Virus record (IMG/VR): IMGVR_UViG_3300031853_000001
Coordinates: 32,001 to 96,000 of that record
Reading direction: 5' to 3' (one strand)
Source of the DNA: a virus
Lineage: Duplodnaviria > Caudoviricetes
Length of the DNA stretch: 64,000 nt
Position numbers and translations under genes: made by a program. The notes below the pieces were generated by a model that was given only the letters and a program-made list of their open reading frames with translations, had not been told where the DNA came from and did not search any database. Within the stretch, counting starts at the first letter, position 1; every line of letters starts with the position of its first letter. Below, one piece after another: positions 10,451-31,216 of this stretch.

Positions 10451-10727
10451 AACATAGTAGTTAGTCGCCACTAACATTAAGACTGTGTAAATTAGACTAT
10501 CCGGGCAGTCTAATTTACCTTCATTTAACAAAATCAAATTAACAAATAATTTATTTTAACTACGTTGATTTTTAACTTGACTTATGATACAATAAAGATG
10601 ATGGGAGGATGTTAAGATTTTGTTAAGAAGAAGGTGAAATTTATGTTAAAAATAGGTAAAAATATCTCTGGGACACGTCTGCCTTTGCGCTGCCTGCCTC
10701 GGCTTCGGTCAGCCAGTGTTGGTGGGC

Positions 10728-10903
10728 AGCTGGAAGTTCCTCGGCTTCGGCCGCGAGTGGGAGCTGGGAGCTGGATGGAGCTGAGAGCTGAATAAAGCTG
10801 AAGCTGGGAGCTGAAACACAAAAATGGGAGCTGGATTTTAATTAACATAAAATTAACATTGGAGCTGCAAATTTAACATAAAATTAACATTTAAATGAAG
10901 CTG
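10728..10903 (+). repeat. cluster of 11 AGCTG motifs plus 11-bp-phased TTAAC repeats
   Basis: gggagctgggagctggatggagctgagagctgaataaagctgaagctgggagctg...; attaacataaaattaacat twice. Confidence 0.85.
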
Positions 10904-11102
10904 AAATTAATAAAAATTAATAACTAGAAATACAACAAATATAGACAGATTAGCGCTTATAAACACTTTAAAAAGCAAAACGTAGACGTTAAATCTATGT
11001 TATTTATAGCATACGGATATTCAAATTAACTTATCATTAACTTGACTACTCATATAATCTATGCTATAATATATACAATAAAAGAAAGAGAGAGAACGCG
11101 CT

Positions 11103-11489
11103 ATGACTAACAACAAAATGACCTTCACCCCTCAACAGATTGATGCCGCTTACATTAACTCTCTTGTTGACCTTGTGAATGCTTGCCGTTACCGTCACAT
11201 CGAAATTGACAAGGTGCGCTACTACCAAAATGGTTGGCATGTAACCTTCGCGGAACATCCGCACGCAGATGCTGTCTGTCATGATGGAAGTTATGGTAGT
11301 CCTTGCTACATGGCGAATTATCTTAGTCAAGGGTATGACAACGACTGGTCGCGCTCTGGCTCTTGGGAGACTATTGGCTTCCCTTGGGACTATGGTGATG
11401 TTAGCGTCCATACCGCGGAAGAACTCACGTTCTATCTATGGTCTTTGAACAATGGTAAAACTCCATGGGAAGAAAACGAGGACTGTTAG
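11103..11489 (+). CDS. hypothetical early protein
   Basis: own promoter; 128 aa; terminator overlapping stop. Confidence 0.75.
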   Translation: MTNNKMTFTPQQIDAAYINSLVDLVNACRYRHIEIDKVRYYQNGWHVTFAEHPHADAVCHDGSYGSPCYMANYLSQGYDNDWSRSGSWETIGFPWDYGDVSVHTAEELTFYLWSLNNGKTPWEENEDC

Positions 11490-11566
11490 TCCTCGTTCTT
11501 CTTATTTTACCTTTGTTAATTTAATTTCCCGGCTATTTTATTTTACCTTCCATTAATATTACCTTT

Positions 11567-11749
11567 TTAATAGAAAAAATGAGGGATAATGAAAATTAAA
11601 ATAAAACTTAAAATCATAATTATAATTTCAATTATGCATTTACCACAAATTTTTATAAACTTTTCAATATCCCGAAATGTCAATCTATAAAACCACATTT
11701 TAATTTTATATTGAAAACTTTTTCTTCTTTTATAATCTTGATAGCGCAT
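11567..11749 (-). CDS. small membrane protein (inverted unit)
   Basis: AAGGAGG SD on minus strand; hydrophobic C-terminus. Confidence 0.65.
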   Translation of the reverse strand: MRYQDYKRRKSFQYKIKMWFYRLTFRDIEKFIKICGKCIIEIIIMILSFILIFIIPHFFY

Positions 11750-11980
11750 CCCGAAACCTCCCTCCTTTTATACATATATTATACTATAAACTAATTTCAA
11801 AATCAAATCATTTTTAAAGTTTTTATTATGACATTTTTTAGACAATCCCAAAACTTATATAATTTAAATCTATGTAAATTATAACATACGGATATTTTAT
11901 TTTACATAAAAATAACTTGACATTTCATTTTAAATTTGCTATAATAATTCCAGAAACAAACGAAAGGGGATTTTCCTAAA

Positions 11981-12121
11981 ATGACAGTTTATGCTATTGA
12001 TTGTAATGGTTTTCAAGGTTCTTCCTATTATCGCACGCGAGAAGAGGCGCAAAATGCGGCAAATTGGCGCACGTATTGCACAGGAATGAAATGGGATGTT
12101 AAGGAAATATTAATTCCTTAA
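11981..12121 (+). CDS. 46-aa micro-protein (paralog of 13849-13992)
   Basis: MTVYAIDCNGFQGSSYYRTREEAQNAANWRTYCTGMKW; promoter and SD; below ORF-track cutoff. Confidence 0.75.
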   Translation: MTVYAIDCNGFQGSSYYRTREEAQNAANWRTYCTGMKWDVKEILIP

Positions 12122-12283
12122 TTTCAATTTCAAATTGCGAAACATAAAAAGTTTCGCAATTTCATTTTAAATTCCTGTTAATTAAACCTCACGTATAATC
12201 TAATTAATAATCATTTAACTTGACATTTCATTTTAATTTTGATATAATATATCCAGAAAAAGAACAGAGGAGGAAATCCTAAA

Positions 12284-12412
12284 ATGCGCGAATGGAATGA
12301 ATTGACAGATGAGGAGCAGGTTCGGCTTTGGTGGGAATACGATGCTAATTCAGGAGAAGAAATTTCATTTTCTGAATTTGACGAAATGATGCAAGGGATT
12401 TACTTTGAGTAA
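12284..12412 (+). CDS. 42-aa acidic micro-protein
   Basis: GAGGAGG SD; MREWNELTDEEQVRLWWEYD...; terminator overlapping stop. Confidence 0.7.
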   Translation: MREWNELTDEEQVRLWWEYDANSGEEISFSEFDEMMQGIYFE

Positions 12413-12546
12413 ATCCCTTAATTTCATTTTTCTTTTACTTTTATTTTCCTAATTTTTAATTTAATTTTCAAATCCCAAAATTAAATCTATGTAAATTAAA
12501 TAACCCGGTTTCTGTAATTAACATAATTTCAAAATAAAACCGTATG

Positions 12547-12735
12547 TTAAACATACGGCGCGAAAATATTTTCCAAATCCCGAATCTCATGAGGATAATA
12601 CAGCACGTAGATTTCCATATAGCCAGGCGCGGGCCAATGCTCTTCACACTCATAATCAAAACCGTAATCATCCAACTGTTCAAACAGGCCGTCCAGCGCG
12701 GAGTTCAGTTCAACGGCATAGCACTTTCTTTTCAT
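12547..12735 (-). CDS. acidic hypothetical protein (inverted unit)
   Basis: minus-strand promoter at ~12770-12800 and GAGG SD. Confidence 0.7.
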   Translation of the reverse strand: MKRKCYAVELNSALDGLFEQLDDYGFDYECEEHWPAPGYMEIYVLYYPHEIRDLENIFAPYV

Positions 12736-12916
12736 TTCAAATTACCTCGCTCTCTTAATTTCTGTAATCATTATAGCACAGCAATCCCGAAATGTCAAGT
12801 TAAACAATTGTAAAATATAATATCCGTATTTTTTATTTTACTTCTTTTTAACTTGACATTTTAAAATAATTTTGGTATAATAATTATAGAAAAAAGAGAG
12901 AGGAGAAAATCCCAAA

Positions 12917-13180
12917 ATGAAGAAGATTATTGTTATCACTCTGATTATCGCTCTGTGCCTGACTCTTACCGCGTGCCAGGTCGGCAACCGCAAAATCGGT
13001 TTTGATACTACGCAGACTTTCCATTGGGCCATCATTCAGATGGGAAATGGTGAACTAATTGAAGGCCCAGTGGATTCGTGGCGAGATTTTAACGAATCTG
13101 ACGCAGTCCAGATTACTATTAATGGTATTACCTATCTGACGCATTACTCCAACGCCATCCTCGCAACCGAGAAGCCTTAA
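12917..13180 (+). CDS. small lipoprotein
   Basis: signal peptide MKKIIVITLIIALCLTLTAC with lipobox LTAC. Confidence 0.75.
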   Translation: MKKIIVITLIIALCLTLTACQVGNRKIGFDTTQTFHWAIIQMGNGELIEGPVDSWRDFNESDAVQITINGITYLTHYSNAILATEKP

Positions 13181-13304
13181 CGGTTTCTCGGTTATTTTTA
13201 TATTAATTATATAATCCGGAATTTATATTTTACTATTATTTAACTTGACTTATTAAAATATATTTGATATACTATATATAAGATAAAGAGAGGAGATTAC
13301 CACT

Positions 13305-13616
13305 ATGATGCCTATTTATGATGCCGATACTCTTCGCAAAGTTTCTTCTGATGCTCGTCTTGCCGAGTTCAATTATGTTAGAGATAACTATGTTCCAAAA
13401 GCACTTTGCAAAATAAATGAAGCTAATTTCACCGCAGCCAATGCCGGGCGGAGTTTTTCCCATGAAAAACTTAATTTGCTTGTTATGGGTCTTGCTACAG
13501 AAGAATCGCAAAACTATCTTAGAATTGGACTAAAAACAGAATTAGAAACATTAGGACTAAAAGTTGATATAGTCATGCGGCCAAATGGCATGATGGAAAT
13601 TACTTGTAGATGGTAA
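13305..13616 (+). CDS. hypothetical early protein
   Basis: promoter, GAGGAG SD, terminator. Confidence 0.7.
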   Translation: MMPIYDADTLRKVSSDARLAEFNYVRDNYVPKALCKINEANFTAANAGRSFSHEKLNLLVMGLATEESQNYLRIGLKTELETLGLKVDIVMRPNGMMEITCRW

Positions 13617-13848
13617 AATTGCGGGTAACCGCAATTTCATTTTAATTTTATGTAAATTAGATTAAACGGGAATTTTATTTTACTTTCCTTTAACTTTTGT
13701 CAATTTCATTTTGTTTTATACATCCTAAAACTAATGTTAATTTCATATTAAATCTCCTATTTCTTATTGACAATTTTATTTTCTTTTGGTATAATATAAT
13801 TGTTCCAAAGAGAACAACAATCAATCCCGAAAGAGAGGCAATTTCAAA

Positions 13849-13992
13849 ATGTATAAGTTCGCAATCTTTTGTATCACTGGTTTGCAGGGCTCTTCCTATT
13901 ATTCTACCCATGAAGAGGCGCTTAACGCCGCGCGTTTCCGTACTAATTGCACCGGATTGCCGTGGTATGTTTCCGCAATAAAGGTTAGGTAA
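13849..13992 (+). CDS. 47-aa micro-protein (paralog of 11981-12121)
   Basis: MYKFAIFCITGLQGSSYYSTHEEALNAARFRTNCTGLPW. Confidence 0.75.
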   Translation: MYKFAIFCITGLQGSSYYSTHEEALNAARFRTNCTGLPWYVSAIKVR

Positions 13993-14124
13993 CTAACCTT
14001 TTTAATTTTATGTTAATTACATAACCCGGATAATCTAATTTCCTTACTTTTAACACTCAAACTTATTGACAATACATATTATATGTGCTATAATAAATAC
14101 ATCAAAAGCAAGGAGGTTCCAATC

Positions 14125-14310
14125 ATGAACATGCCGCTTTACTCCATTGATTACATCGTAACCGCTACCAATACCGCCACTTATCAGTATTTTTATACTA
14201 CTCACGACGCGCGCAACTTTCTTTGGAATAATCGTAACAAAATTCATGATGTAATTATTTATCTGTTTGGTTCTATGACAGAAATCAGCGAAAAAGATTT
14301 GCGGGATTAA
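14125..14310 (+). CDS. hypothetical early protein
   Basis: AAGGAGG SD before ATG 14125. Confidence 0.7.
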   Translation: MNMPLYSIDYIVTATNTATYQYFYTTHDARNFLWNNRNKIHDVIIYLFGSMTEISEKDLRD

Positions 14311-14439
14311 CCCGCATTTCTTTTTTATCGTTATGTTAATTAAATTGTCCGGGCTACCTAATTTACACAAATATAACTTGCATTTATGCCAATTCTATGC
14401 TATAATATATACAAGATAAAGAAAGGATGGTAATACACA

Positions 14440-14622
14440 ATGACGGTTAAAGAATTGATGGAAGTTTTTGAGTGCTATGAAAAACTGTGGGGCGAAAAGT
14501 TCACATCTCTGCCGATTGTGACAGTTGGCCACGATGCAAACGGTGAACGACAGTATAACATTCCAGTAACTGATTACACCTTCAATATTGAAGATAACGA
14601 CTTTACCCTTTGGGACAATTAA
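14440..14622 (+). CDS. hypothetical early protein
   Basis: promoter, SD, terminator. Confidence 0.7.
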   Translation: MTVKELMEVFECYEKLWGEKFTSLPIVTVGHDANGERQYNIPVTDYTFNIEDNDFTLWDN

Positions 14623-14788
14623 GCGCGCAAGCGCTTAATTTTTTAATATAATGTAAATTACAATGTCCGGGTCTTTTAATTTATATATATTTTACATTCC
14701 ATAGATATTTTTTACTATTGACAACTATTAAAAAATATGATAAAATAGTCTTGTAGTTGAGGGAATAAAGCATAAAGGAGTGTATCAT

Positions 14789-14998
14789 ATGTATACTGTC
14801 TATGATTGCAAGGATGAATACCGCGCCACTTTTTACTCTAAAGAGGAAGCTTTTTCCGCCGCAATTAATCATTGCGTTACGGAAGGACTTTATGTTAATA
14901 ATGTCCTCTCCGACATTGAAGATTCCTTCACAATCATTTACCTTGACCCGGATGATAATAGCCCGCAAGAAATCGCGATTTATAAGGTGTGCGAATAG
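14789..14998 (+). CDS. hypothetical early protein
   Basis: AAGGAG SD; terminator with stop in loop. Confidence 0.7.
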   Translation: MYTVYDCKDEYRATFYSKEEAFSAAINHCVTEGLYVNNVLSDIEDSFTIIYLDPDDNSPQEIAIYKVCE

Positions 14999-15135
14999 CA
15001 CACCTTTTATTATTAAATAGATGTTAAATAAAATACCCGGCCAGTCTATTTTCCAAACCTTTAACATACATACCTATTGCAAAAAGTCTGTGCATATGCT
15101 ATAATATACTCAACAAAGCAAAGGAGGGCACCACA

Positions 15136-15276
15136 ATGAAGTACATCGTAGTGAACATGACCACCAAAGAGCAGATTATTTGCACGACTCGCCGCGAGGG
15201 CCGCGACCTTGCAGAACGTCTGAGCATTGAAACCACTTGTCTCTGGTTTCTGATGATTGTCCCCGAAGGCGCATAA
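15136..15276 (+). CDS. 46-aa micro-protein
   Basis: AAGGAGG SD; MKYIVVNMTTKEQIICTTRREGRDLAERLSIETTCLW. Confidence 0.7.
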   Translation: MKYIVVNMTTKEQIICTTRREGRDLAERLSIETTCLWFLMIVPEGA

Positions 15277-15376
15277 GCGCCTTTTTTATTATATCTGTGT
15301 AAATTAAATTACCCGGCACTTATAGTTTACGATTATTTAACTTGACTTCTTTTATGCTCTATGCTATAATAGACTT

Positions 15377-15552
15377 GTCGAAAGGAAGAAAGGAGTGTTG
15401 AGAGATGGAGCCACCCTACTAATGCAAGGGGTAATGTCTGACATGGCGGGCGTAGGACATCCCCACTTACAAAGGGAACCGACCCGCGGCAGGAGTGGCG
15501 CACTGACCGCGAACGAGCCAACCGCGCGGAGTAGCTAACCGCGCGGCTTTTA
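15377..15552 (+). ncRNA. candidate small structured RNA (only a 5-codon ORF, MEPPY)
   Basis: consensus promoter at 15342-15370, GC-rich body, terminator ccgcgcgg..ccgcgcgg-TTTT, no real ORF. Confidence 0.5.
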
Positions 15553-15662
15553 TTATACTAATGTTAATTATAATTCCCGGATACTCTAATTTACCATCTT
15601 TTAACTTGACAGTTTTAGCGCCACATGCTATAATAAGGTATCAAATGAAGGAGGTAACCAAC

Positions 15663-15839
15663 ATGAACAAACCCTATTGCTTAATCTATCGCCGCTTTAA
15701 TTTCCCTGAGGTTGAACGGTATTTCTCACGCGAAATTGATATGGAAGGTTACATCAATATTTGGTTTGATGACGATGTAGATTACATCCACTTCTTTTAT
15801 TGGAATGTGGAATACACCCCGACATGGTGGGCCGAGTAA
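15663..15839 (+). CDS. hypothetical early protein
   Basis: AAGGAGG SD before ATG 15663. Confidence 0.7.
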   Translation: MNKPYCLIYRRFNFPEVERYFSREIDMEGYINIWFDDDVDYIHFFYWNVEYTPTWWAE

Positions 15840-15961
15840 TCGGCCTTTTATATTTATGTTAATTAAAATACCCGGAATTTCTAAATAACGAACAATTAAC
15901 TTGCTTTTTCTTAGTTCCTATGCTATAATATACTTACAAAAAGGAAAGCGAGGTCAATCTT

Positions 15962-16210
15962 ATGAAGTATTTCATGGTAATGTGCCACCGTGGGCATTGT
16001 GGAACAGGTCACAGCACTGAAATTAAGTTTGCAATTCGCGCGGATAATCTTTTAGAAGCTTGTGATAAAGCACGGAAAATGCCGAGCGTTAAACATACAA
16101 GATTGGCAATTTACGGAAAAGAAATAACCGAACAAGAATATCATGAATACAGACAAATAAGCGCTTATCAAAGATTTAATCAAACAAGCACAAAAAGAAA
16201 ATGGCATTAA
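15962..16210 (+). CDS. hypothetical protein (CHRGHCG motif)
   Basis: promoter, SD, terminator; possible metal-binding His/Cys motif. Confidence 0.7.
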   Translation: MKYFMVMCHRGHCGTGHSTEIKFAIRADNLLEACDKARKMPSVKHTRLAIYGKEITEQEYHEYRQISAYQRFNQTSTKRKWH

Positions 16211-16335
16211 GCCATTTTCTTATTTTAATTATATGTAAATTAAACTATCCGGATATTCTATTTTACCAATAGTTAACTTGACAATTATCTTTCTATGTAT
16301 TATAATATATACAGAAATTGAGAGGAGGCAACCCC

Positions 16336-16554
16336 ATGAAACAGATTAACAAAGTGCAGGCCCGTAAACTCTACGAACAAAAAAAGCCGTTCATCATTGT
16401 ACCCGCGAATATGCGCCCTGATTCGCAATTCGCTGTCCACATGAAACCCGGTTGGATGTTTCGCAATTTTAACAACTTTTACAACGAATTTTGCTACTAT
16501 AATTGTAATAACCGCGAGGTCGGCCGCTACCCGCGCTTTTACGTGGAGGAATAA
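16336..16554 (+). CDS. hypothetical early protein
   Basis: GAGGAGG SD before ATG 16336. Confidence 0.7.
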   Translation: MKQINKVQARKLYEQKKPFIIVPANMRPDSQFAVHMKPGWMFRNFNNFYNEFCYYNCNNREVGRYPRFYVEE

Positions 16555-16713
16555 TCCTCCACTTTTTTATTAAGTATATGTAAATTAGAATATACGGACA
16601 TTCTAATATACGTAATTTTAACATAGAAAAACTATTGACAAATCAATTTTTTGTGGTATAATAAAATAAAAAACGGTTCAACGACAACGACAACATGAAA
16701 GGAGATTTTCACA

Positions 16714-17004
16714 ATGAGGTTTTTTGAGATTCAGATTCGCCACGTTTTGGTCTATGGTTACATCTACAACAACGGCATGTTTGAAATTAACATGTGGGAT
16801 TTTGATGCCGACGACTATTGGTTCAGGGACGGACGTAAAAAGAACGTTAAGGCCGCGTGGTGTATGATTTACCACATGACGCGCGACATGGACAGGTTTA
16901 ACCACATCTTTGATGAAGATGGAGTTAAGGAAGTTAAGGAAGCTATGGAGCTTTTCTTTGACGAAGACTTGGAAATGTTAAATTTTGATGAAGACTGGGA
17001 ATAG
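16714..17004 (+). CDS. acidic hypothetical protein
   Basis: AAGGAG SD; D/E-rich C-terminus. Confidence 0.7.
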   Translation: MRFFEIQIRHVLVYGYIYNNGMFEINMWDFDADDYWFRDGRKKNVKAAWCMIYHMTRDMDRFNHIFDEDGVKEVKEAMELFFDEDLEMLNFDEDWE

Positions 17005-17284
17005 GCCACGGCCTATTCTTTTTTTAAGCGTATGTAAATTAGAATACCCGGACAATCTAATTTACTCAAATTTAACTTGACTTCTATCGCGTTATATGTT
17101 AAGATAGTATAGAGTAGGTAAGGGAGGTGAGTGTTATGATTCAGTTAAGGAGCGATTAAAGTATGGTTAAGCGCGTATTAAAATCGTGTAAAGTGGCCTG
17201 TGTATCAGGTCTATTAAGCGTGCGTAAAATCTATGTAAGCTTGAGTCCCATGGCTGAAGTTTATTTAACATACTCTTTAATTCC

Positions 17285-17396
17285 AGCTGGAAGCTGGAAG
17301 CTGGAGCTGGAATTAACATACTTTTAACTTGACATGAAGCTGGGAAGCTGGTATAATATAATCAAAAGAAAGGAGCTGTGAGCTGTGAAGAAGCTG
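17285..17396 (+). repeat. cluster of 9 AGCTG motifs woven through a promoter, SD and start of a gene
   Basis: ccagctggaagctggaagctggagctgg...ttgacatgaagctgggaagctggtataat...aaggagctgtgagctgtgaagaagctg. Confidence 0.85.
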
Positions 17397-17636
17397 AACA
17401 TTGTATACGAAATGAAGTTTACTTGTGATGAATGGTTAATTGAGCATATTAACCATGAATGGGAATATGCTCTGGATGAAACAGAAGGAACGGAAACAGA
17501 AGAAGAAATTTTTGAAATTGCTCTCTCTTACGCTCTGGAAGAGAATTATGCTCTTAGTTATAATGAACGTGAAGCAATTTTTTCTCAATCGCATGAAATT
17601 TATAAATGGTGGAAGGAGAACAAAGAAAATGAATGA
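17385..17636 (+). CDS. acidic hypothetical protein
   Basis: GTG start behind AAGGAG; Glu-rich. Confidence 0.65.
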   Translation: MKKLNIVYEMKFTCDEWLIEHINHEWEYALDETEGTETEEEIFEIALSYALEENYALSYNEREAIFSQSHEIYKWWKENKENE

Positions 17637-17787
17637 AGTTATTGAAACACTTTTCCGCGTGCAAGATTCATTGCTTTCTATCAATAATGATATTGAAGAA
17701 CAATTTTCTGACTATTCAAAAACATGTTTGCGTTGTGCATTAGAGGATATTCAAGCAATTTTAGAAGAAGCATCTAACGCGGTTTAA
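17629..17787 (+). CDS. small hypothetical protein
   Basis: AAGGAG SD, ATG 17629 overlapping upstream stop. Confidence 0.6.
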   Translation: MNEVIETLFRVQDSLLSINNDIEEQFSDYSKTCLRCALEDIQAILEEASNAV

Positions 17788-17911
17788 CCGCGTTTTTTTT
17801 ATAATTGTGTTAAATAAAATGCACGGTAATTGTATTTTACATACTTTTAACTTGACTTATCCTCTAAAATTTGATATACTATATTCAGAAAAGGAAAGGG
17901 GATATAAAAGA

Positions 17912-18352
17912 ATGAAAATTTGGTTTGACATGGACGGCACGATTGCGAATCTTTATGGTGTTAATGGTTGGCTTTCCGCGCTTAATGCCTATGACCCTTC
18001 ACCTTATGAGATTGCTAAACCTCTTGTTAATCTTTCCAGACTTGCGCGGTATCTTAATCGATTGCAAGCAATGGGACATGAAATCGGCATTATTTCATGG
18101 CTTTCCAAGTATTCAACCCCAGAATATGACAAACTTGTGACAGATGCTAAAAAGTATTGGCTTTCTTATCATATGCCAAGCGTCAAATGGGATGAAGTCA
18201 TAATTACTTCATATGGGATTAACAAATGGGAAACATGCGGCGCGGGAATTTTGTTTGATGATGAAGAAAAAAACCGCGATGCATGGGGCAATACAGCATA
18301 TGAGCCTAACGAAATTTTTAACGTTCTTATAGAAATGGTTAAGGCGGGCTAA
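17912..18352 (+). CDS. HAD-superfamily phosphatase (5'(3')-deoxyribonucleotidase-like)
   Basis: motif I FDMDGT, motif IV LFDD. Confidence 0.8.
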   Translation: MKIWFDMDGTIANLYGVNGWLSALNAYDPSPYEIAKPLVNLSRLARYLNRLQAMGHEIGIISWLSKYSTPEYDKLVTDAKKYWLSYHMPSVKWDEVIITSYGINKWETCGAGILFDDEEKNRDAWGNTAYEPNEIFNVLIEMVKAG

Positions 18353-18478
18353 CCGCCTTTTCTTTTTTTGAAATTATGTTAATTAAAATTCCCGGGTATT
18401 CAAATTAACAAAAAATTTACTTGACTTTTTATAGAAATTATGGTATTATATTTATAGAAAGTGAAGGGAGAAAGTCAA

Positions 18479-18601
18479 ATGAAAGTTACTTACACAATGA
18501 ATATAAAACTTAGTCCGTGGCTTGTAATTTTTGCTCCATTTGTCGCTTTTTTCTTTGTGTGTTGGGTTAATATAAAATTTCTTTACAAAAACTTAACTTG
18601 A
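18479..18601 (+). CDS. 40-aa membrane peptide
   Basis: own promoter and SD; hydrophobic WLVIFAPFVAFFFVCW. Confidence 0.5.
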   Translation: MKVTYTMNIKLSPWLVIFAPFVAFFFVCWVNIKFLYKNLT

Positions 18602-18674
18602 CTTTCCCTCCCAAATCTGCTATAATAATTCCAGAAAGTGAAGGAAAACACTAAACCAGAAAGGACTAACACCT

Positions 18675-19356: not shown

Positions 19357-19422
19357 TCTTAACTTGACTTCTACGTGTAGATGGTATATACTATATATAG
19401 AAAATGAAGGGAGATTATAAAT

Positions 19423-23511: not shown

Positions 23512-23783
23512 GCCCTTTCTTTTTATTAAACCAACGTTAATTAAAAATCCCGGACAGTGTATTTTACTTACGTTTAACACAAAAAAGTATTGACAAAATA
23601 CGGAAATTCTGATATACTATTCTTGTCGAAAGGGGAAAGGGAAACCGCGTCGTGCGCGTCCCGTGGCGGCGGAATCCCTCCCAATCGCAACAAAATCTTA
23701 ACTTGACATTACATCACAAACGTGATATAATGAATACACAACAGAGGAAGGAAAACCTCAACAAAACCAGAAAGGGAAATACT

Positions 23784-24185
23784 ATGAAGAACACTCTGAC
23801 TCGCGTTGACGCTCTGAACTACGCTATTGCCGCCGTGACCAACTCCACCGAAGTGCTGACTAATCCCGATGAAATCGTGGACGTGCTGACCAAGATTCGC
23901 GACCAGATTGCGAAGCCCCGCAAGACCAGCGACGAAGCCAAGGCGAAGGCCAAGGACAAGCGTGCCAAGGCTCGCACCGCTCTGATGGAGCAGGTTCTGC
24001 CCATCATCCGCGAAGCCGTTGCTGATGGCGGTACCGCCAAGGAAATTTACGAGCGCTGTGCTAACGCTCTGCCCGAGGACTTCACCGTCGCCAAGGTACA
24101 GTATATTCTGCTCCATGAGATGGCGGGCGAGGTTGTAAAGACCGAAGCCAAGGGCAAGCCCAACGTCTACACGATGAAGGGTTAA
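23784..24185 (+). CDS. small winged-helix-like protein (family A)
   Basis: TAKEIYE..LPEDFTVAKVQYILLH..EVVK..KGKPNVY. Confidence 0.7.
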   Translation: MKNTLTRVDALNYAIAAVTNSTEVLTNPDEIVDVLTKIRDQIAKPRKTSDEAKAKAKDKRAKARTALMEQVLPIIREAVADGGTAKEIYERCANALPEDFTVAKVQYILLHEMAGEVVKTEAKGKPNVYTMKG

Positions 24186-24325
24186 TAAAGAGGGCGAAAG
24201 CCCTCTTTTAATTTAATTAAATGTTAATTACAGTACCCGGCATTTTTAATTAACCAAATATTTACTTGACTTTATTCAATTTCTATGTTATAATATATAT
24301 AGAAAAAAGAAAGGGGATACCGATT

Positions 24326-24538
24326 ATGGCTATCAACATTCGTCACACCTACGCCACCCATGTCACTGTTGTTTTCTACGATGACGATGCAGGAATTTCT
24401 CTACGCTATGATGATTGTGGCTCTATGGACGACATTGCCGAGCAGGTATGTGAAGTTCTGGTTAAGCATAATTTTTCTTACGCGGATGTGTGCTCCGCTG
24501 AAACTGGTGAAGTCCTAATGACGATTGAACGAACTTAA
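24326..24538 (+). CDS. acidic hypothetical protein
   Basis: promoter, SD; ETGEVL motif. Confidence 0.7.
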   Translation: MAINIRHTYATHVTVVFYDDDAGISLRYDDCGSMDDIAEQVCEVLVKHNFSYADVCSAETGEVLMTIERT

Positions 24539-24687
24539 CGAGGTTAATACCTCGTTAACTATAGCATCCGGTCATTTTAATTTACTCACAATTAACAGAA
24601 AAAAGTATTGACAAAATCCCAAATTTCTGCTATACTATATACATCAAGTGAAGGAAAACACTTACAAACCAGAAAGGGAAAAACACT

Positions 24688-25023
24688 ATGAAGATTTCCA
24701 AGGCTATCGTCGATTCCAACATCCGCACCGCTATCTTTTCCGCTCTGAACGTCGCTAACATCGAAGGCTTCCACAAGATTAACGACCGTCAGTATGGTTG
24801 CATCGTCGAGGATGTAAACGGCGAACGCCGTTACGCTCGCGTCGGTGTTATCGTCGCAGAGCAGCGGGAGGATGTTACCGCGGACGAACTGATGGCGTCC
24901 GAAATCGCGGACTATGAGGACAAGCAGGCAAAGAAGGCCGAGCGTGCCGCCGCTCGTGCGGAAAAGGCCGCCAAGGATAGGGCGAAGCGTGAAGCCGCCA
25001 AGAAAGAAAAGGAAGGGGATTAA
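24688..25023 (+). CDS. hypothetical protein with K/A/E-rich tail (family B)
   Basis: IVEDVNGERRYA vs IVDSEGNEKFA in 18675; conserved leader. Confidence 0.7.
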   Translation: MKISKAIVDSNIRTAIFSALNVANIEGFHKINDRQYGCIVEDVNGERRYARVGVIVAEQREDVTADELMASEIADYEDKQAKKAERAAARAEKAAKDRAKREAAKKEKEGD

Positions 25024-25166
25024 CCCTTCCTTTTTAATTATATGTTAATTATATCGCCCGGCTATTTTTATTTACACTCTTTTAACTTGACAAATTTGCC
25101 TATATAGTATATACTATATACATGAAGTGAAGGAAAACACTTACAAACCAGAAAGGAAAAAGAAGA

Positions 25167-25844
25167 ATGTTTAAGTATGAGCAGGAGATTCAGCAGGCTA
25201 ACAAGATTTATCAGGAGCAGTATCAGATTTGCAAGGATGCTTGCAAAGACATGCTTGGAGAGGAAGATTTTATTTATTCCGAAGATGAAGCAATGTGTCG
25301 TTTTATCGCATTTGGTGATGGAGAGTGCATTATTGAAGGATATGAAAACGAAAAGGGAAGTCTTTCGTCTAACGCACGTATAGCCATTAAAAAGTATTAT
25401 GACTTTGTTGAAGGCGAAGGTTATGTTCGTGTAAAAGAGTCCAATCTCTTTTCTATTGAAAGTCTTTTCCCTGCCGCGTCGCTTCCTGTTAAGGAATTTG
25501 ATTTTGCTAATGGCGAAGCCGATTGTCCCGGCCTTTATTTCCTTGGCATGATTGGCCGCAATCCTAATGGTGAAGATTTTTATCTTGTGAAAATCGGTTG
25601 CGCTAAAAACATTAAAGAACGTGTAAATCAATATAGATCTTACAACCCTATGATTTATCATAATAATATTATTTATTGCCCTAATATTGATTTGAGAGAA
25701 GCAGAAAAACAGGCACACCGTGCGCTTGCCGACCTTGCGATTGCTCGCGCTGCTCATGCCATGGAATGGTTTTATGTTGATAAAGAAACTTATTTTGCTC
25801 TGTGTGAAAATCCTTGGCAATATATTTTTGAGGAAGAGGCGTAA
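25167..25844 (+). CDS. T5orf172/GIY-YIG-like domain protein
   Basis: GLYF...VKIG..NIKERVNQY..EKQAH..EWF. Confidence 0.7.
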   Translation: MFKYEQEIQQANKIYQEQYQICKDACKDMLGEEDFIYSEDEAMCRFIAFGDGECIIEGYENEKGSLSSNARIAIKKYYDFVEGEGYVRVKESNLFSIESLFPAASLPVKEFDFANGEADCPGLYFLGMIGRNPNGEDFYLVKIGCAKNIKERVNQYRSYNPMIYHNNIIYCPNIDLREAEKQAHRALADLAIARAAHAMEWFYVDKETYFALCENPWQYIFEEEA

Positions 25845-25963
25845 GCCTTTTCTTTTTAAAAGAAAAGTTAATTAAAATAACCGGACAATTTAAATAACAC
25901 GCTTTTAACTTGACATTTTTCTATATTTCTGTTATACTATATCTAAAGAAAGGGGAATTGTCA

Positions 25964-26161
25964 ATGAAAGTAAAAGATATTGTCGCTCGCGCGCAACAGC
26001 ATATTTCCATTAAAAACGTATTGATTAGAAATGCAAATATGAAAACTTTGCTTTACTTCGGGCCTATCAATACTATTCCCGCTCAATTTCTTAACAAAGA
26101 AGTTACTTGTTATCTTTACAATTCTTCGCGCAAACTTTTCATTTTGAAAATCACCACTTAA
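25964..26161 (+). CDS. basic hypothetical protein
   Basis: promoter, SD, terminator. Confidence 0.6.
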   Translation: MKVKDIVARAQQHISIKNVLIRNANMKTLLYFGPINTIPAQFLNKEVTCYLYNSSRKLFILKITT

Positions 26162-26294
26162 AAGAACGATTATTCGTTCTTTTAAATTTCTGTAAACTAT
26201 ATCGCCCGGTAATTTTAGTTAATTAAATCTTAACTTGACTTCTATTATTTTACATGATATAATAATACCATCAAGTGAAGGGAGACTAAATAAT

Positions 26295-26504
26295 ATGAGA
26301 ATTACTTGGACTGAAACACACACCATTGAAATTGATGACACTTGGATTAAGGAAATTTTTTCTGAAAATACTTCTGAAGATGCAAGAAACATTATTGAAA
26401 ATAATATGTATGAGATTATATATGAGGTTGAGCGCGCGAACATTTTCCAATACATAAATAATTGGAATGAAATTATTGATTCCATTTGCCAGAAGAATAA
26501 TTAA
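26295..26504 (+). CDS. acidic hypothetical protein
   Basis: GGGAG SD before ATG 26295. Confidence 0.65.
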   Translation: MRITWTETHTIEIDDTWIKEIFSENTSEDARNIIENNMYEIIYEVERANIFQYINNWNEIIDSICQKNN

Positions 26505-26579
26505 CCGAATCTTAACTTGACTTTTCCAGCGAACAGGATTATAATATATACAGAAAGAAACGAAAGGGGATTTCACAGT

Positions 26580-26825
26580 ATGGCAATTTACGTTGTCTTT
26601 TCCAACTACTTTAACAGCGGTGTTTTCGGCACCTATTCCAGCGTCAAGCGTGCCCGCATTGCGTTTGAGCACTTCCTCGCGGAAGATGAGGACATTGTGG
26701 CTTTTGAGGATCTCGGCGGCTATTCCTACCAGTTCACTACCAAGATCGGTGAAACCTTCGGTGCGGAAATTGACTTTGATGTTCTTGATGCCGAATTTGT
26801 TGAGGGAGTTTGTAAGGAGGGTTAA
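26580..26825 (+). CDS. hypothetical protein
   Basis: promoter, SD. Confidence 0.7.
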   Translation: MAIYVVFSNYFNSGVFGTYSSVKRARIAFEHFLAEDEDIVAFEDLGGYSYQFTTKIGETFGAEIDFDVLDAEFVEGVCKEG

Positions 26826-26831
26826 TAATTT

Positions 26832-27017
26832 ATGAATTGTCTTAAATGTGGTCATACCTTTGCCGGTCCTGATTGTTATAGCACTGAACAGGATGGCGAT
26901 TCTTATACCAACTACATAAGTGCCTATTGCCCTTGGTGCCGCAAGTGGTTTGAATGGATGGAGATTTTCACACTTTCGGAAATCACCCCACCAGAAGAAA
27001 TGGAAGGAGAAGAATAA
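26832..27017 (+). CDS. small zinc-ribbon protein
   Basis: CLKC...CPWC; paralog of next ORF. Confidence 0.7.
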   Translation: MNCLKCGHTFAGPDCYSTEQDGDSYTNYISAYCPWCRKWFEWMEIFTLSEITPPEEMEGEE

Positions 27018-27020
27018 ATT

Positions 27021-27221
27021 ATGAAGTGTCCGAATTGCGGAAATGACGTTTTCTTTGATGAAGTAGTAGACACCGAATATTATACTGGTACACACATTGA
27101 TATTGGTTATGGCACGTGTTCAAAGTGTCATAAAGATTGGGGATGGAGTGAGGTTTTCACTTATTCTAAAGATATTGACATCGAAGAGATGCCGCCCTTG
27201 CCTAATAACGACCATCTTTGA
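27021..27221 (+). CDS. small zinc-ribbon protein
   Basis: CPNC...CSKC; W.E.FT motif shared with 26832. Confidence 0.7.
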   Translation: MKCPNCGNDVFFDEVVDTEYYTGTHIDIGYGTCSKCHKDWGWSEVFTYSKDIDIEEMPPLPNNDHL

Positions 27222-27303
27222 TGGTCGTTAATTTTATATTAACTACAATTCCCGGACAATTTAATTTACACAACTATAAAAAAATAAGCGCCTAAGCGCT
27301 TAT

Positions 27304-27831
27304 TCACCATCTTTCCGTAACTTCCTCAGACATAGCATAATCAATCAAGCAAGCCTTTCCGTCACGGATTCCCCAATTATAAGAATGAATATCTTTATTA
27401 AATTCTGTCACCCAATTAAATTCATCTTCGGTCAGATAATAATCAATATAATGCCCCTTATGCAACCTACCACCTACATGCTTAATTCGCGGCATAATCA
27501 TAAAATAATAACCCTGATATTCAATAAGCGTAGGTTCAGCCAATAAGTAATCATAGCCCGCTTCTTTGGCTTTCATAAAAGCCTTGTGTTCATCTGCGCA
27601 ACCACCACATTCATAAGCGCATTCTTTATCATAATCCCACTTAATAACATAATCAGAGGTAATCAACGCGATTCACGCAACACCATAATTAAAAAGAACT
27701 TTCCTATGCTTATAAGCATTATAACGCCAAACCGCCTCTTGCGCATCGTATTTATCAGTCAAACAATTACAAATATAAGGGAAAATGTCCTTCAAAAACT
27801 TTGCGGCGCGAATACGATAATCAGACTTCAT
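27304..27831 (-). pseudogene. protein-kinase-like (APH/RIO fold) gene with in-frame TGA at 27673-27675
   Basis: SD and ATG at 27831 read in frame to YGVA*IALITSDYVIK; DIHSYN and IDYA motifs downstream; paralog has GATR at this position. Confidence 0.7.
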
Positions 27832-27958
27832 ATTGATTAACCCCTTTCGTTTTTCTAATATAATTATACAGATAATCCGCTATTTTGTCAAGTTAAAATT
27901 ATGTAAACTACATAATACGTGTACTTTAATTTACACAACTTTAAAATAAAATCCTAAC

Positions 27959-28192
27959 TCAAAGAGTTAGGAAATAAATATTCATTACTATTAAAGCCAA
28001 CCGCATAACCACATTATTAATATGCGGCTTTGTGTGCAAATCCCATATCAAGCCCACCACATTAACAGGCAAGCCAACCCACGCGCCACGATTCCATGCG
28101 ATTATTGCGATTGTGTTAAGTATGGCAAAAATTGCCACTAAATCCATTCGCTCAAACTGATAAGGCGTGGTGATACTGAAAAACTTTTTCAT
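27959..28192 (-). CDS. small membrane protein
   Basis: hydrophobic 77 aa, coupled to upstream ORF. Confidence 0.65.
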   Translation of the reverse strand: MKKFFSITTPYQFERMDLVAIFAILNTIAIIAWNRGAWVGLPVNVVGLIWDLHTKPHINNVVMRLALIVMNIYFLTL

Positions 28193-28413
28193 TCTTCATA
28201 CCTCGTTAAATCATTTTGTGAACGTTGAAAATCAGCATATCCATTCATATAAAAACTTTTATATACTCTAACTGTATAGAATACATAATTAGTTTTTTCA
28301 AACCTAACATCAACTTCTTCAAGTGGGTCAATCTCAATTTTGACGATATAACCATAAATCGGTTTTCCATCTACATTACTAATAAAAGATACCTTATCGC
28401 CAATATTAAACAT
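28189..28413 (-). CDS. hypothetical SH3/KOW-like small protein
   Basis: FNIGDKV start motif; minus-strand promoter and SD. Confidence 0.6.
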   Translation of the reverse strand: MFNIGDKVSFISNVDGKPIYGYIVKIEIDPLEEVDVRFEKTNYVFYTVRVYKSFYMNGYADFQRSQNDLTRYEE

Positions 28414-28538
28414 ATTTTATTTACTCCCTTCATTTGATACTCTAATTATATACTATCCGCGCGCGATTGTCAAGTTAAATAATAATAAATTAAATTACCC
28501 GGGCATTTTAATTAACATACAATTAAAAAAAAGAAGGC

Positions 28539-28862
28539 TTACGCCTTCTTCTCCTTGGCCTTGGCTACCTTAGCAGCCTTCTCAGCTTCCTTGGCCGCCT
28601 TGTTATCAGCCTTGACCCTCTTCTCGGCTTCCCACTCCTGCGCGGCCTCAAAGGGGTCAAACGCCTTGGATACCTTGGTGTCCTTGTAAGCCTTGGACTT
28701 AACAGAAACTTCCGTCCAAACTTCCTGACCGTCAACGACTTGTAGGATAGCAAAGGAACCGTCCGCGAACTTCACGGCCTCATTCTCCATCAGAGAAGGC
28801 ATGATCGCGGCAATAGTCATCTGGCGAGCGGTGGACTTGATTTCGTTAGCATTCATAGACAT
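28539..28862 (-). CDS. hypothetical protein with K/A-rich tail (family B)
   Basis: AFDPFEAAQEW vs PFDGYAAAEDW in 18675; variant of conserved leader. Confidence 0.7.
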   Translation of the reverse strand: MSMNANEIKSTARQMTIAAIMPSLMENEAVKFADGSFAILQVVDGQEVWTEVSVKSKAYKDTKVSKAFDPFEAAQEWEAEKRVKADNKAAKEAEKAAKVAKAKEKKA

Positions 28863-29093
28863 AGTGTAAACCCTTTCTCGTTTTTAGGAGTTTCGTTCTC
28901 CTCTTGATGTATCCATTATAGCAGAGTTTCAGCGGAATGTCAAGTTAAAACTTTGTTAAGTCTTGCTTATCCGTCCTTGCCACTCTTGCCCCTTGGATTG
29001 ATTTAATTATACATCCAAATCCAAGAAAAGTCAAGTTAAACATATGTGAATTAGAAAGACCGGGTAGTTTAAATAACATAAAATTAAAGTGGG

Positions 29094-29447
29094 CTATTCG
29101 CCCACTTTAACCCATTCCATTTCTTTCCAATCATATTCATACAAGCCCACTTCATCCCACGGCAATTCATAGCCAAAATAAGAATAAATCAGTTTTCTAA
29201 CTTCGTGAGAAACAATTTTCTTTACACGAATCTTTTCGCATCTCTCGAAAGCATATTTAATAGCGTATAGACCCTGTTCTACTTCATTCAAGAAAATCCA
29301 AATATACGCACCATTTTTCCCAAAAAAATCATAAGCATTAAAAAATTCGTTCAACAAATCAAAGGCTTTGCTCTCATATTCTTCACATTCTTCCAAATTA
29401 TCAAACTCGGTATCATCATAAGCAACATAAGTAATAATTTCACGCAT
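29094..29447 (-). CDS. hypothetical protein
   Basis: YVAYDDTEFD..EC..YE motif common in phage proteins; own promoter. Confidence 0.7.
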   Translation of the reverse strand: MREIITYVAYDDTEFDNLEECEEYESKAFDLLNEFFNAYDFFGKNGAYIWIFLNEVEQGLYAIKYAFERCEKIRVKKIVSHEVRKLIYSYFGYELPWDEVGLYEYDWKEMEWVKVGE

Positions 29448-29622
29448 AACTCATATCTCCCTTGCTTTTCTACATATATAATATCATAAACCCAACCCAA
29501 AGTCAAGTTAAATAATTATAAATTAAAATATCCGGGCACCCTAATTAACACACAATTAACTTGCTTTTTCTTTATTGATATGCTATACTATATACATCAA
29601 ATGAAAGAGAGGTAACACTTCT

Positions 29623-30339
29623 ATGATTGACAAACGCAAGCATTATTATTTGGTTCTTGACACCGAAACCGCGAACGGTTTAGACGATGCTCTTGTATAT
29701 GATTTGGGCGGTTGTGTCGTTGATAAGTCCGGCATAATCTATGCACAATTTTCTTTCACTATTCGCGACATTTTTGTCTATGAGCGCGAAATGATGCGTA
29801 CCGCCTACTATGCGGATAAAATTCCTTCTTATGTGAAGGAACACCATGAGGGCACGCGCAAGATGGTAAGTTTTTACGATGCCCGGCAATATGTTCTCGC
29901 GTTGATGCACGAATACAACATTACAGATGTTTGCGCATATAATGTCAACTTTGACAGGAACGCGCTAAACACAACTCAAAGATGGCTCACCAAGTCCAAG
30001 TATAGGTATTTCTTCCCGCGCAATACTAACTTTATCTGTATTTGGAATATGGCTTGCCAAACCCTTTGCCAGCGCAAAACTTATAAAGAGTTTTGTGAAG
30101 CTAACAACTTTACAAGCAATCGCAAAGGCGCGCCCGATGCCCGCAATTATAGCACAAGTGCGGAAACGGTTTATAGGTATTTGATACTCAATGCCGAATA
30201 TGAAGAGGAACACAAAGGCATTGATGATGTAAAAATTGAAACTTACATTTTTGCCCGTTGTATCGCCGCGCATAAGGCTTTCCCGTATGGCAAAGGAATA
30301 AGACGGAATTGTTGGATGGACGTTAAGAGAACGGTTTAA
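29623..30339 (+). CDS. DEDDh 3'-5' exonuclease (paralog of 22519)
   Basis: VLDTETA, AYNVNFD, HKGIDDVKIE; shared TSAET.YRYL. Confidence 0.85.
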   Translation: MIDKRKHYYLVLDTETANGLDDALVYDLGGCVVDKSGIIYAQFSFTIRDIFVYEREMMRTAYYADKIPSYVKEHHEGTRKMVSFYDARQYVLALMHEYNITDVCAYNVNFDRNALNTTQRWLTKSKYRYFFPRNTNFICIWNMACQTLCQRKTYKEFCEANNFTSNRKGAPDARNYSTSAETVYRYLILNAEYEEEHKGIDDVKIETYIFARCIAAHKAFPYGKGIRRNCWMDVKRTV

Positions 30340-30428
30340 CCGTTCTCTTTTTTATTAAACATATGTAAACTATAATGCCCGGATATTTTAATTTACATAT
30401 AATTAAAATTAAAGAGGAAAACTCCTCT

Positions 30429-31112
30429 TTAAATAATATTTAATGCCATTAATATTTTTTTCCACAAAGGTGCTAAATGAAAACGCACACTATAATTATA
30501 ATGCTGTTGTATAAGTTTCTTTTCCTCTTCATAGCTTTGAACAAGTTGCAAATAAGATTGATTTATCTTTTTTAATTCTTCAATTTCCTTTTCTTGTTTT
30601 TTATTAATAGTTGCATAATTAATAACTTGTTCAGTCATTGTTTTATCATGCTTATATATTTTATCATATTCATTTTTATTTATATAAAAACGATTATCAT
30701 TTTTTGTATTTTGAGCTAATTTAATAAGTTCATCCATTCTATTAACATCAAAAATTTGCCAAGGATTTTTACACAATTCAAAATATATAGGTTCACTAAC
30801 ATAATACCATTCGCGGCTATAAGAAGGAAGCCCTATTGCAAGCAACTCCAACATTAAATGAGCATAAGTTTCCATGTCATAACCTTTGGGAATAGGTAAT
30901 TTTTTAGTTAAGATATGATGCTCTTGATGAAATAGTTGGCAACTATGGGTTTTATATTGTTTAATACGTCTTGACAAATCTCCGCCCCAGCCAATTTTAA
31001 CAGAACATAACAATTCTCCATCCGGAGTAAGACCACGCTCTCCGAAAAAATATATACCACTATCATGATTATCACATGTAATATTATTGTTACTTAAAAC
31101 TTTCAATGCCAT
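30429..31112 (-). CDS. T5orf172/GIY-YIG-like domain protein with coiled-coil tail
   Basis: GIYF..VKIG..RRIKQY..EWYYV..YFELCKNPWQIF, matching 25167 (YFALCENPWQYIF). Confidence 0.7.
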   Translation of the reverse strand: MALKVLSNNNITCDNHDSGIYFFGERGLTPDGELLCSVKIGWGGDLSRRIKQYKTHSCQLFHQEHHILTKKLPIPKGYDMETYAHLMLELLAIGLPSYSREWYYVSEPIYFELCKNPWQIFDVNRMDELIKLAQNTKNDNRFYINKNEYDKIYKHDKTMTEQVINYATINKKQEKEIEELKKINQSYLQLVQSYEEEKKLIQQHYNYSVRFHLAPLWKKILMALNII

Positions 31113-31216
31113 ATTTTTTATTTCCTTTCTTTTGATACCTCAATTATAATACATAAATCATGTTATGTCAAGTTAAATCATTGTAAATCAAACTGTCCGG
31201 GCACTTTATTTTACAA

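Follow-up and report, generated by a model that had tools for sequence, protein, structure and literature searches.

A 52 bp palindrome at the gene boundaries of a reshuffled 21 kb cassette array in a clade of large ruminant-gut phages

A 21 kb block of a tailed-phage genome carries 39 copies of an information-rich palindrome of about 52 bp, which separate a series of 38 small gene cassettes. The DNA analysed here (the window) is a stretch of 64,000 nt, bases 32001–96000 of the IMG/VR virus record IMGVR_UViG_3300031853_000001, which is single and linear, 180,932 bp long, and has a CheckV completeness estimate of 100%. The palindrome stands at a rigid distance upstream of strong promoters, and the cassettes between its copies have been gained, lost and reordered in related phages by crossovers scattered over the boundary modules. 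We consider it about an even chance that the palindrome is the binding and control site, or the boundary site, of a dyad-symmetric protein, with the shuffling of cassettes proceeding by ordinary homologous recombination.

The sites were located by a pattern scan of the window (GTWAATTA-N6-CCGG-N6-TAATTWAC, up to three mismatches allowed), which returned exactly 39 copies between 10487 and 31214, compared with 0.02 on average, and never more than 1, in shuffled sequence. These are the same 39 copies listed in an earlier, sequence-only reading of this DNA, which had also reported an invariant central CG, a spacing of about 0.3–1.2 kb and no copies outside 10.5–31.2 kb. A symmetrised 60 bp weight matrix, derived from these copies and applied to all 180,932 bp, gave 39 matches of at least 12 bits, each scoring at least 38 bits and all lying inside the array, so that the confinement is genome-wide and not merely window-wide. 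All copies are intergenic, the measured spacing is 264–1154 bp, and the CG (C16 and G17) is present in 39 of 39. Position 10 is A in all 39 copies and position 23 is T in 37. The core geometry of the 32 bp site first described stands, but its extent had been under-measured: a TTAA lies 6 bp beyond each arm in 36–39 of the 39 copies, and the full palindrome is TTAA-N6-GTWAATTA-N-A-N4-CCGG-N4-T-N-TAATTWAC-N6-TTAA, about 52 bp in length and carrying about 48 bits.

The symmetry resides only in the conserved positions. Four variable mirror pairs (9/24, 11/22, 13/20 and 14/19) show no above-chance excess of complementarity in the window, indicating a dyad-symmetric protein site and not a hairpin. 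The 12 bp inverted arms seen in the best copy therefore do not represent the general layout, and folding of the palindrome as a hairpin, a cruciform or an attC-like structure was ruled out by the same lack of covariation. A miniature inverted-repeat transposable element with a TTAA target duplication was also ruled out, because six variable bases separate each TTAA from its arm. A connection to Z-DNA, raised by Z-alpha-like fold matches (see below), was dropped; alternating GTACGTAC centres occur in some lineages, and the CCCGGG centres of the window are non-alternating.

The tetranucleotide at the centre of the site, CCGG, is under-represented in the genome as a whole (132 observed versus 215 expected under a Markov model), and 30 of the 132 occurrences are site centres. 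Also avoided genome-wide are GATC (0.29), CATG (0.44), and TCGA and GTAC (0.52), a pattern that suggests host restriction pressure.

The 38 intervals between sites are 232–1122 bp long, and most hold one small gene (40–330 aa). They had been described as self-contained promoter–gene(s)–terminator units of heterogeneous composition, and both descriptions are borne out: cassette G+C content ranges from 21 to 50%, and signals of both kinds are in excess over shuffles. A consensus scan found 116 promoter-like sites in the array (65.9 ± 8.1 in shuffles), of which 37 match 11–12 of 12 positions, and 45 terminator-like hairpins (15.8 ± 3.9 in shuffles), nearly all of which end immediately before a site. 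Almost all cassettes carry a consensus promoter and a terminator of their own. The palindrome lies between the T-run of the terminator of one unit and the −35 element of the sigma-A-type promoter of the next. Such terminator–promoter junctions make up 26 of the 39 sites; two are flanked on either side by promoters and two by terminators, and the remainder show a single recognisable signal or none (Table 1). In the minus-strand cassettes (27270–29517 and 30397–31182) the arrangement of signals is the mirror image. The array is flanked upstream by a block conserved in relatives (9746–10412) and on the other side by a conserved helicase-like gene (31822–33063). Late genes (portal protein, sigma-like protein) are on the minus strand upstream of the array, and a long plus-strand block lies downstream.

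The distance between palindrome and promoter is rigid. Across 205 strong promoters flanking the sites, the −35 hexamer starts at site position 44 (11 bp past the 32 bp core) in 150 cases. It is displaced by a further 10–12 bp in 32 (exactly 11 bp in 25) and by 21 or 22 bp in two, while displacements of 1–9 bp do not occur. The distance from the terminator stem to the site is variable, at 9–17 nt or more. Terminator–promoter junctions account for 143 of 212 sites across arrays, and 9–12 sites serve divergent promoters, with equal spacing on both sides. Going by the −35 spacing, the centre of the site would fall near −62, or near −73 in the second sub-class, on the same helix face; these are the classical positions for upstream-bound factors that touch the alpha C-terminal domain. 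Such rigid, helically phased spacing points to a dimeric regulator or boundary protein, and the symmetry of the site makes it able to serve a promoter on either side.

The array, at 11.5% of genome length, contains 47 of the 110 strong promoters of the genome. About 40 others, all on the plus strand at 65–174 kb of the genome, form a second class of highly uniform layout, in which TTGACT is followed by a conserved spacer of the type ttttctaaaaatt.tg. and this in turn by TATAAT. Examples in the window (from 33164 to 63000 and onward) are at 33164, 33518, 34530, 38537, 41211, 46793 and 48814. This class has its own conserved spacer but no palindrome, showing that the palindrome is specific to one promoter class, and its spacer suggests a separate class-specific factor. 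The dyad symmetry, the phased −35 elements and the site-less second class together favour the alternative offered by the sequence-only reading, in which the regularly spaced sites are bound by a phage DNA-binding protein.

Scanning IMG/VR for the exact pattern gave 24 loci on 12 contigs, and a metagenome collection gave 69 further stretches from ruminant gut, many of them from the same samples. All matching stretches are arrays of the same site, with a median spacing of 434 bp, and the non-redundant set comprises 215 sites. In five related records the sites lie in one block each, of 18–20 kb, and the reversed-pattern control gave zero; one of these relatives has 34 sites at 56.9–75.3 kb of a 136,935 bp contig. 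Among 185,579 prokaryotic genomes the exact pattern was found once, on a 3.9 kb contig of a roe-deer gut metagenome-assembled genome, and this contig is a piece of such an array. The motif is therefore a feature of a single clade of ruminant-gut phages and not of the host chromosome. Searches of a phage collection by megablast and blastn found no relatives. Apart from a few lineage shifts (C or A at position 15, and differences at position 9), the half-site consensus is identical across lineages whose cassette proteins are only 35–90% identical. The N6 spacers keep a constant length, with randomised sequence. In one related record (G003, about 69–81 kb), the site in part of the array is a variant that combines ordinary arms with G+C-rich inner positions (GCGCCG-type centres) and may represent a diverged sub-class.

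A junction module that needs no binding factor would offer another account of these features, and we regard it as rather unlikely. The palindrome would then be spread or homogenised by recombination or gene conversion and kept for an intrinsic property of the DNA, either bendable TA/CG steps every 10–12 bp or an orientation-free, UP-like A+T-rich zone for the alpha C-terminal domains. The right half-site does span about −54 to −37, which is the UP-element zone, pyrimidine–purine steps recur at roughly the helical period, and the lineage preferences at positions 9 and 15 resemble concerted evolution; in addition, the promoter/stem-loop (PeSL) modules of T4-type phages work without a special factor (PMC2839356). 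Against this, an invariant CG and G/C arm ends in all lineages are unexpected for an element that is merely A+T-rich or curved, sites between two terminators are equally well conserved, and the other promoter class functions without the palindrome. The palindrome is presumably also a poor match to the UP-element consensus, which counts against such a module as well.

If the array behaves as a set of exchangeable cassettes, then their order should differ among related phages. Cassette content and order do differ strongly between arrays of relatives, through gain, loss, reshuffling and some inversion. The most complete relative has 16 cassettes in common with the window at the DNA level, and two of the five shared pairs that are adjacent in the window are still adjacent there. 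Comparison at the protein level reveals more common cassettes, some of them present in duplicate and others inverted. The excess of identity over a type-matched background was profiled at 111 junctions between a shared cassette and a neighbour that differs. It is +0.15 to +0.20 in the flank beside the shared cassette, decays over the site and is at most +0.05 beyond it, which places the breakpoints in the boundary modules. A first breakpoint profile, in which the whole site travelled with the upstream terminator, was not reproduced with typing based on gene orientation and more junctions.

Crossovers were mapped by three-way comparison of close relatives (at least 90% identity) in a small sample of six independent recent indels, each consisting of one or more whole cassettes. 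Three lie inside the core, two in the right arm (positions 20–33 and 22–29) and one in the left arm (3–14, window site 16580); in all three, the informative bases flanking the central CG on both sides come from the same parent, excluding the centre. The other three lie outside the 32 bp core: one falls in the −35 block past the site, one within the promoter spacer, and one in the −10 region of the opposite promoter. The breaks are thus in the boundary modules, as had been anticipated, but they occur in arms, −35, −10 or promoter spacer and not at the central CG. Homology-driven exchange predicts just such a scatter, reaching every conserved block of the module.

The absence of a recombinase, noted earlier for the window, extends to the whole 180,932 bp record: neither the tyrosine recombinase family PF00589 (E ≤ 0.1; control positive in 14 of 14 genomes) nor the serine recombinase family PF00239 (control positive) gave a match. 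The phage encodes a Sak4-like AAA_24 protein (E 6e-46), and neither RecA nor RecT was found in it. Positions 13–14 and 19–20, which would belong to the spacer of a tyrosine-type (loxP/FRT) site, vary among the 39 copies, which exchange of the Cre/FLP type would not tolerate.

The array resembles integron attC arrays in having single-gene cassettes between imperfect palindromes and a content that varies among relatives. It differs in lacking IntI, in having sites conserved in sequence and not in folded structure, in cassettes that carry their own promoter and terminator rather than depending on one common promoter, and in crossovers that do not occur at a fixed point. Unlike a shufflon (Rci/sfx), it has no tyrosine recombinase, and its units are independent genes with their own signals, not segments of one coding region. 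Unlike loxP, FRT or dif, the central overlap is not identical among copies, and crossovers are spread between the −10 of one flanking promoter and the spacer of the opposite one. A serine-recombinase site does not fit either, as there is no serine recombinase and the in-core crossovers (three events) are off the central dinucleotide. The array is thus a true cassette array, reshuffled in relatives, that works like a hyperplastic region of the PeSL type; the site-specific recombinase mechanism of the integron- or shufflon-like interpretation is unsupported.

It is quite improbable that the palindrome is the target of an unrecognised recombinase or site-specific nuclease (e.g., HNH or T5orf172/GIY-YIG-like), whose break or nick would start site-to-site exchange and actively diversify the early-gene set. 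Such an activity would suit the presence of a conserved site at every boundary whatever the gene orientation, convergent junctions included, and the gain, loss, movement and inversion of cassettes. Break-induced repair would also scatter crossovers round the site, matching the data, and two T5orf172 proteins in the array and several HNH endonucleases in the window could supply the nuclease. However, neither a tyrosine nor a serine recombinase is present in a record estimated to be complete, the spacer positions differ from site to site, and none of the six crossovers needs the centre (three exclude it and three are outside the core). The T5orf172 cassettes occur in only 3–4 related fragments, and the phased promoter spacing is given no role. 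The nuclease-stimulated variant was kept under consideration because a break at one site, repaired from another, gives a similar scatter. In its strongest form, an unrecognised phage nuclease, or a recombinase of neither the tyrosine nor the serine type, would open the boundaries in a dedicated, diversity-generating exchange of host-takeover or anti-defence cassettes, with promoter phasing as a second function of the site; this we find highly doubtful.

We propose that a sequence-specific dimeric or tetrameric DNA-binding protein, probably phage-encoded, binds the 52 bp palindrome, which would mark each transcription-unit boundary in an early, hyperplastic gene region. Bound upstream of −35, the protein would affect all promoters of the class together, most likely in shut-off of the early class or insulation of the units, for which the action of the phi29 protein p4 at promoter A2c may be a precedent. 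Shut-off or insulation is likelier than activation because the array promoters are already at consensus. As a by-product, the conserved terminator–palindrome–promoter modules (about 100 bp) would provide portable homology, at which general recombination (by the Sak4-like AAA_24 recombinase and also host machinery) could delete, duplicate, insert, reorder and occasionally invert cassettes. The outcome would be a hyperplastic region like that formed by the PeSLs of T4.

Several points weigh against this proposal. Sites without a promoter (37 of 212, including those between two terminators) are conserved equally well (p = 0.31), and a site is missing from about 11 strong promoters that lie within multi-gene cassettes. 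A promoter operator therefore explains most of the array but not all of it; these conserved promoter-less sites and site-less promoters imply that the site acts as a boundary element in its own right, and the two misfits are the reason for placing the proposal no higher than even. Some of the geometric rigidity could stem from shared ancestry of the junction modules. A winged helix-turn-helix (wHTH) family encoded in the array is a candidate binder only: it is fast-evolving (median 39–46% identity) compared with the nearly constant site, some of the fetched fragments showed no member of it, and a 52 bp footprint is long for a simple wHTH dimer.

The three wHTH paralogues of the window (Table 1) align with members from 15 related fragments. 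The AF2 model of the family has a long helix followed by a winged helix (pLDDT 91.5), and its top structural matches are nearly all wHTH proteins of the Fur/PerR, ArsR/SmtB, PadR, MarR and Z-alpha types (VIA Z 7.6–9.4, rmsd 1.4–2.5 over 57–68 residues), with weak Foldseek E-values of 0.02–0.1. A homodimer prediction, scoring 0.18 against a mark of 0.42, counts neither way. The presumed recognition helix reads K-x-R-Y-G in two lineages with mostly ACGT-centred sites and K-x-Q/N/G-Y-A/G in ten lineages with CCGG-centred sites. The two ACGT-centred lineages are close kin, so that this co-variation represents one event at most and is only a lead.

The partner of the site might instead be a global regulator or nucleoid protein of a Bacillota-like host, exploited by the phage. 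A site that stays near-constant while the phage proteins diverge fast is what would be expected of a conserved host partner, and the early genes have to be transcribed before the phage has made a protein of its own. No host regulon with the exact operator was found in the 185,579 genomes, in an exact-match scan that would miss degenerate sites, and we judge a host binder to be very improbable.

Two further candidates for a phage-encoded binder were rejected. The weak match to PF00216 (E 0.0086) behind an HU/TF1-like binder is a 68 aa, acidic, all-helical open reading frame (ORF) starting at 37082, which is not an HU fold. A ParB/Noc/KorB-like binder was dropped after no ParB_N domain was found in the phage. 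The central 14 bp of the palindrome bear what we take to be a faint resemblance to the Noc site.

The closest known counterpart of the array is the PeSL system of T4-type phages (Arbiol et al. 2010, PMC2839356; Comeau et al. 2014, PMC4122927), in which a repeated module of a terminator and a strong sigma-70-type early promoter builds a hyperplastic region, with breakpoints in the modules and exchange by homologous recombination. Common to both are dozens of composite terminator/promoter modules among small, mostly uncharacterised early genes, and breakpoints of indels and replacements that fall within the modules. Unlike PeSLs, the array modules have an information-rich 52 bp palindrome at fixed spacing between terminator and promoter, and this palindrome is limited to one 21 kb block and is present also where there is no promoter. 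The phages themselves are unrelated to the T4-type, having Gram-positive-type promoters and coming from the ruminant gut.

The stoperators of cluster A mycobacteriophages (L5 gp71 type) are 13 bp, asymmetric, monomer-bound sites that are oriented with transcription, distributed genome-wide and used in lysogenic immunity; they are thought to act both at promoter initiation and as a block between transcription units (PMC9283540). They share with the array the presence of one operator-type sequence in 20–40 copies (39 here) in the short intergenic spaces of one phage. In contrast, the array site is a 52 bp palindrome confined to the early array, and no integrase or immunity cassette was seen. The p4 dimer of phi29 touches RNA polymerase alpha from upstream and represses the consensus A2c promoter (Monsalve 1996, PMC38568, as cited in PMC11806353). 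As described there, the p4 sites at A2c/A2b/A3 are, like those of the array, inverted repeats upstream of the −35 of strong early promoters and act in a manner dependent on the helix face. phi29 has four sites, compared with 39 here, and those sites have no sequence similarity to the palindrome. No p4 homologue was found, though no search was aimed at one, and the likeness is mechanistic only.

The KorB operators (OB) of IncP plasmids are 13 bp palindromes present in about a dozen copies, partly fixed just upstream of −35, and serve global repression. A repeated palindrome on a mobile element at a fixed position upstream of −35 is thus common to both systems. OB is 13 bp and the array site 52 bp; KorB belongs to the ParB family, and the phage shows no ParB_N domain.

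The array is an unusually clean natural case of standardised expression units, each consisting of a terminator, a 52 bp palindrome, a consensus promoter and a gene, in a layout that is reused about 40 times per genome by a clade of large ruminant-gut phages and was found nowhere else. It extends the PeSL principle, by which repeated regulatory modules become the substrate for modular gene exchange, beyond the T4-like phages. What is new is an information-rich palindrome in every module that is restricted to one block, conserved in the clade, phased with the promoter and retained where no promoter is present. Should the palindrome be an operator, one protein would control or insulate about 38 early genes at once, and the protein–site pair could serve in Gram-positive hosts as an orthogonal switch or insulator.

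Table 1. Boundary sites of the cassette array and the winged-helix paralogues encoded in it. Signals are given as left / right of the site; (+0) denotes a −35 at the canonical spacing, and +11 or +12 a promoter displaced by that many bp.
Feature	Coordinates	Strand	Remarks
Whole array	10478..31224	none	39 palindromic boundary sites (including outer TTAA), 38 cassettes
Site 1	10487..10518		array edge; nearest promoter ~60 nt downstream
Site 2	10999..11030		right-hand promoter, canonical spacing
Site 3	11515..11546		convergent junction; left terminator, no promoter
Site 4	11874..11905		promoter right (+0)
Site 5	12177..12208		terminator / promoter (+0)
Site 6	12491..12522		right: terminator of minus-strand gene; no convincing promoter
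Site 7	12810..12841		divergent junction; promoter on both sides (+0)
Site 8	13202..13233		terminator / promoter (+0)
Site 9	13652..13683		left terminator; no adjoining promoter
Site 10	14012..14043		terminator / promoter +11
Site 11	14335..14366		terminator / promoter (+0)
Site 12	14653..14684		left terminator; promoter farther downstream
Site 13	15023..15054		terminator / promoter +11
Site 14	15299..15330		terminator / promoter (+0)
Site 15	15563..15594		promoter right (+0)
Site 16	15858..15889		terminator / promoter (+0)
Site 17	16235..16266		terminator / promoter (+0)
Site 18	16580..16611		terminator / promoter +12; 2–3 extra cassettes here in relatives
Site 19	17034..17065		terminator / promoter (+0)
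Site 20	17809..17840		terminator / promoter (+0)
Site 21	18378..18409		terminator / promoter (+0)
Site 22	19099..19130		terminator / promoter (+0)
Site 23	20214..20245		terminator / promoter +11
Site 24	20822..20853		terminator / promoter +11
Site 25	21791..21822		terminator / promoter (+0)
Site 26	22382..22413		terminator / promoter +11
Site 27	23536..23567		terminator / promoter +11
Site 28	24223..24254		terminator / promoter (+0)
Site 29	24554..24585		promoter right +11
Site 30	25044..25075		terminator / promoter (+0)
Site 31	25867..25898		terminator / promoter (+0)
Site 32	26192..26223		terminator / promoter (+0)
Site 33	27238..27269		convergent junction; terminator on both sides, no promoter
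Site 34	27903..27934		leftward promoter (+0) / terminator; minus-strand cassettes
Site 35	28485..28516		leftward promoter (+0) / terminator
Site 36	29046..29077		leftward promoter (+0) / terminator
Site 37	29518..29549		divergent junction; promoter on both sides (+0)
Site 38	30365..30396		convergent junction; terminator on both sides; among best-conserved copies (57.8 bits)
Site 39	31183..31214		array edge; leftward promoter (+0)
Winged-helix paralogue 1	20441..20779	+	112 aa; long N-terminal helix and C-terminal wHTH; candidate site-binding regulator
Winged-helix paralogue 2	21421..21750	+	109 aa
Winged-helix paralogue 3	23652..24185	+	177 aa; basic N-terminal extension, pI 9.8

About 25 cassette proteins were scanned against Pfam and PHROG with mostly blank results, the matches being two T5orf172 proteins, one NT5C nucleotidase and two DEDD exonuclease-like proteins; PDB sequence searches with two family profiles gave nothing usable. 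Nearly all cassettes are without assigned function and constitute a catalogue of candidate host-takeover or counter-defence genes. The best conserved protein of the array is a basic protein of 82 aa (15962–16210, plus strand), with a median identity of 83% in 20 fragments and invariant residues C8, H12, C13, C34 and H45. The lead from a language-model search was RpoY, the RNA polymerase epsilon subunit (0.85; 182 shared features), and Foldseek gave weak matches (E > 1) to YkzG (4njc, TMt 0.60) and T7 Gp2. The protein may be a takeover factor that binds RNA polymerase.

The two DEDD (DnaQ-like) exonuclease-type paralogues are in separate cassettes (22519–23511 and 29623–30339, both plus strand) and are conserved in 22–23 related fragments, and the NT5C-type 5′-nucleotidase lies at 17912–18352. 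Presumably this set is comparable to the pre-early genes of T5 for degradation of host DNA. The T5orf172 (GIY-YIG-clan) proteins are encoded at 25167–25844 (plus strand) and 30429–31112 (minus strand). Paralogues resembling HNH homing endonucleases, of about 300 aa, lie outside the array at 2700–3644 and 4716–5660 (both minus strand) and at 41927–42832 (plus strand). A family of small proteins with a lysine/glutamate/alanine-rich, histone-tail-like C-terminal tail (18675–19076 and 24688–25023, plus strand; 28539–28862, minus strand) had no Pfam or PDB match, and its members are possible further nucleic-acid binders. Cassette 24 includes a tRNA-Lys(UUU) gene (21063–21138, plus strand) with its own consensus promoter at 21015.

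Upstream of the array, a G+C-rich stretch (about 50%) at 8400–8790, in which ~350 nt are without an ORF, precedes the gene at 8793 and contains the repeat ggtggaatttgg twice. From its sequence it looks like a structured leader, and a search of Rfam with it returned nothing at gathering score. Many copies of the repeat (G/A)AGCTGGA occur downstream of a promoter at 10700–10900, in the first cassette, and again at 31400–31640, in an ORF-poor region after the last site; these stretches may be non-coding RNAs or protein-binding repeats that bracket the array. Between the array and the helicase-like gene there are three copies of a 16 bp palindrome, TGTCAA-N4-TTGACA (31488–31503, 31525–31540 and 31570–31585), which could be an operator or an origin-like element.

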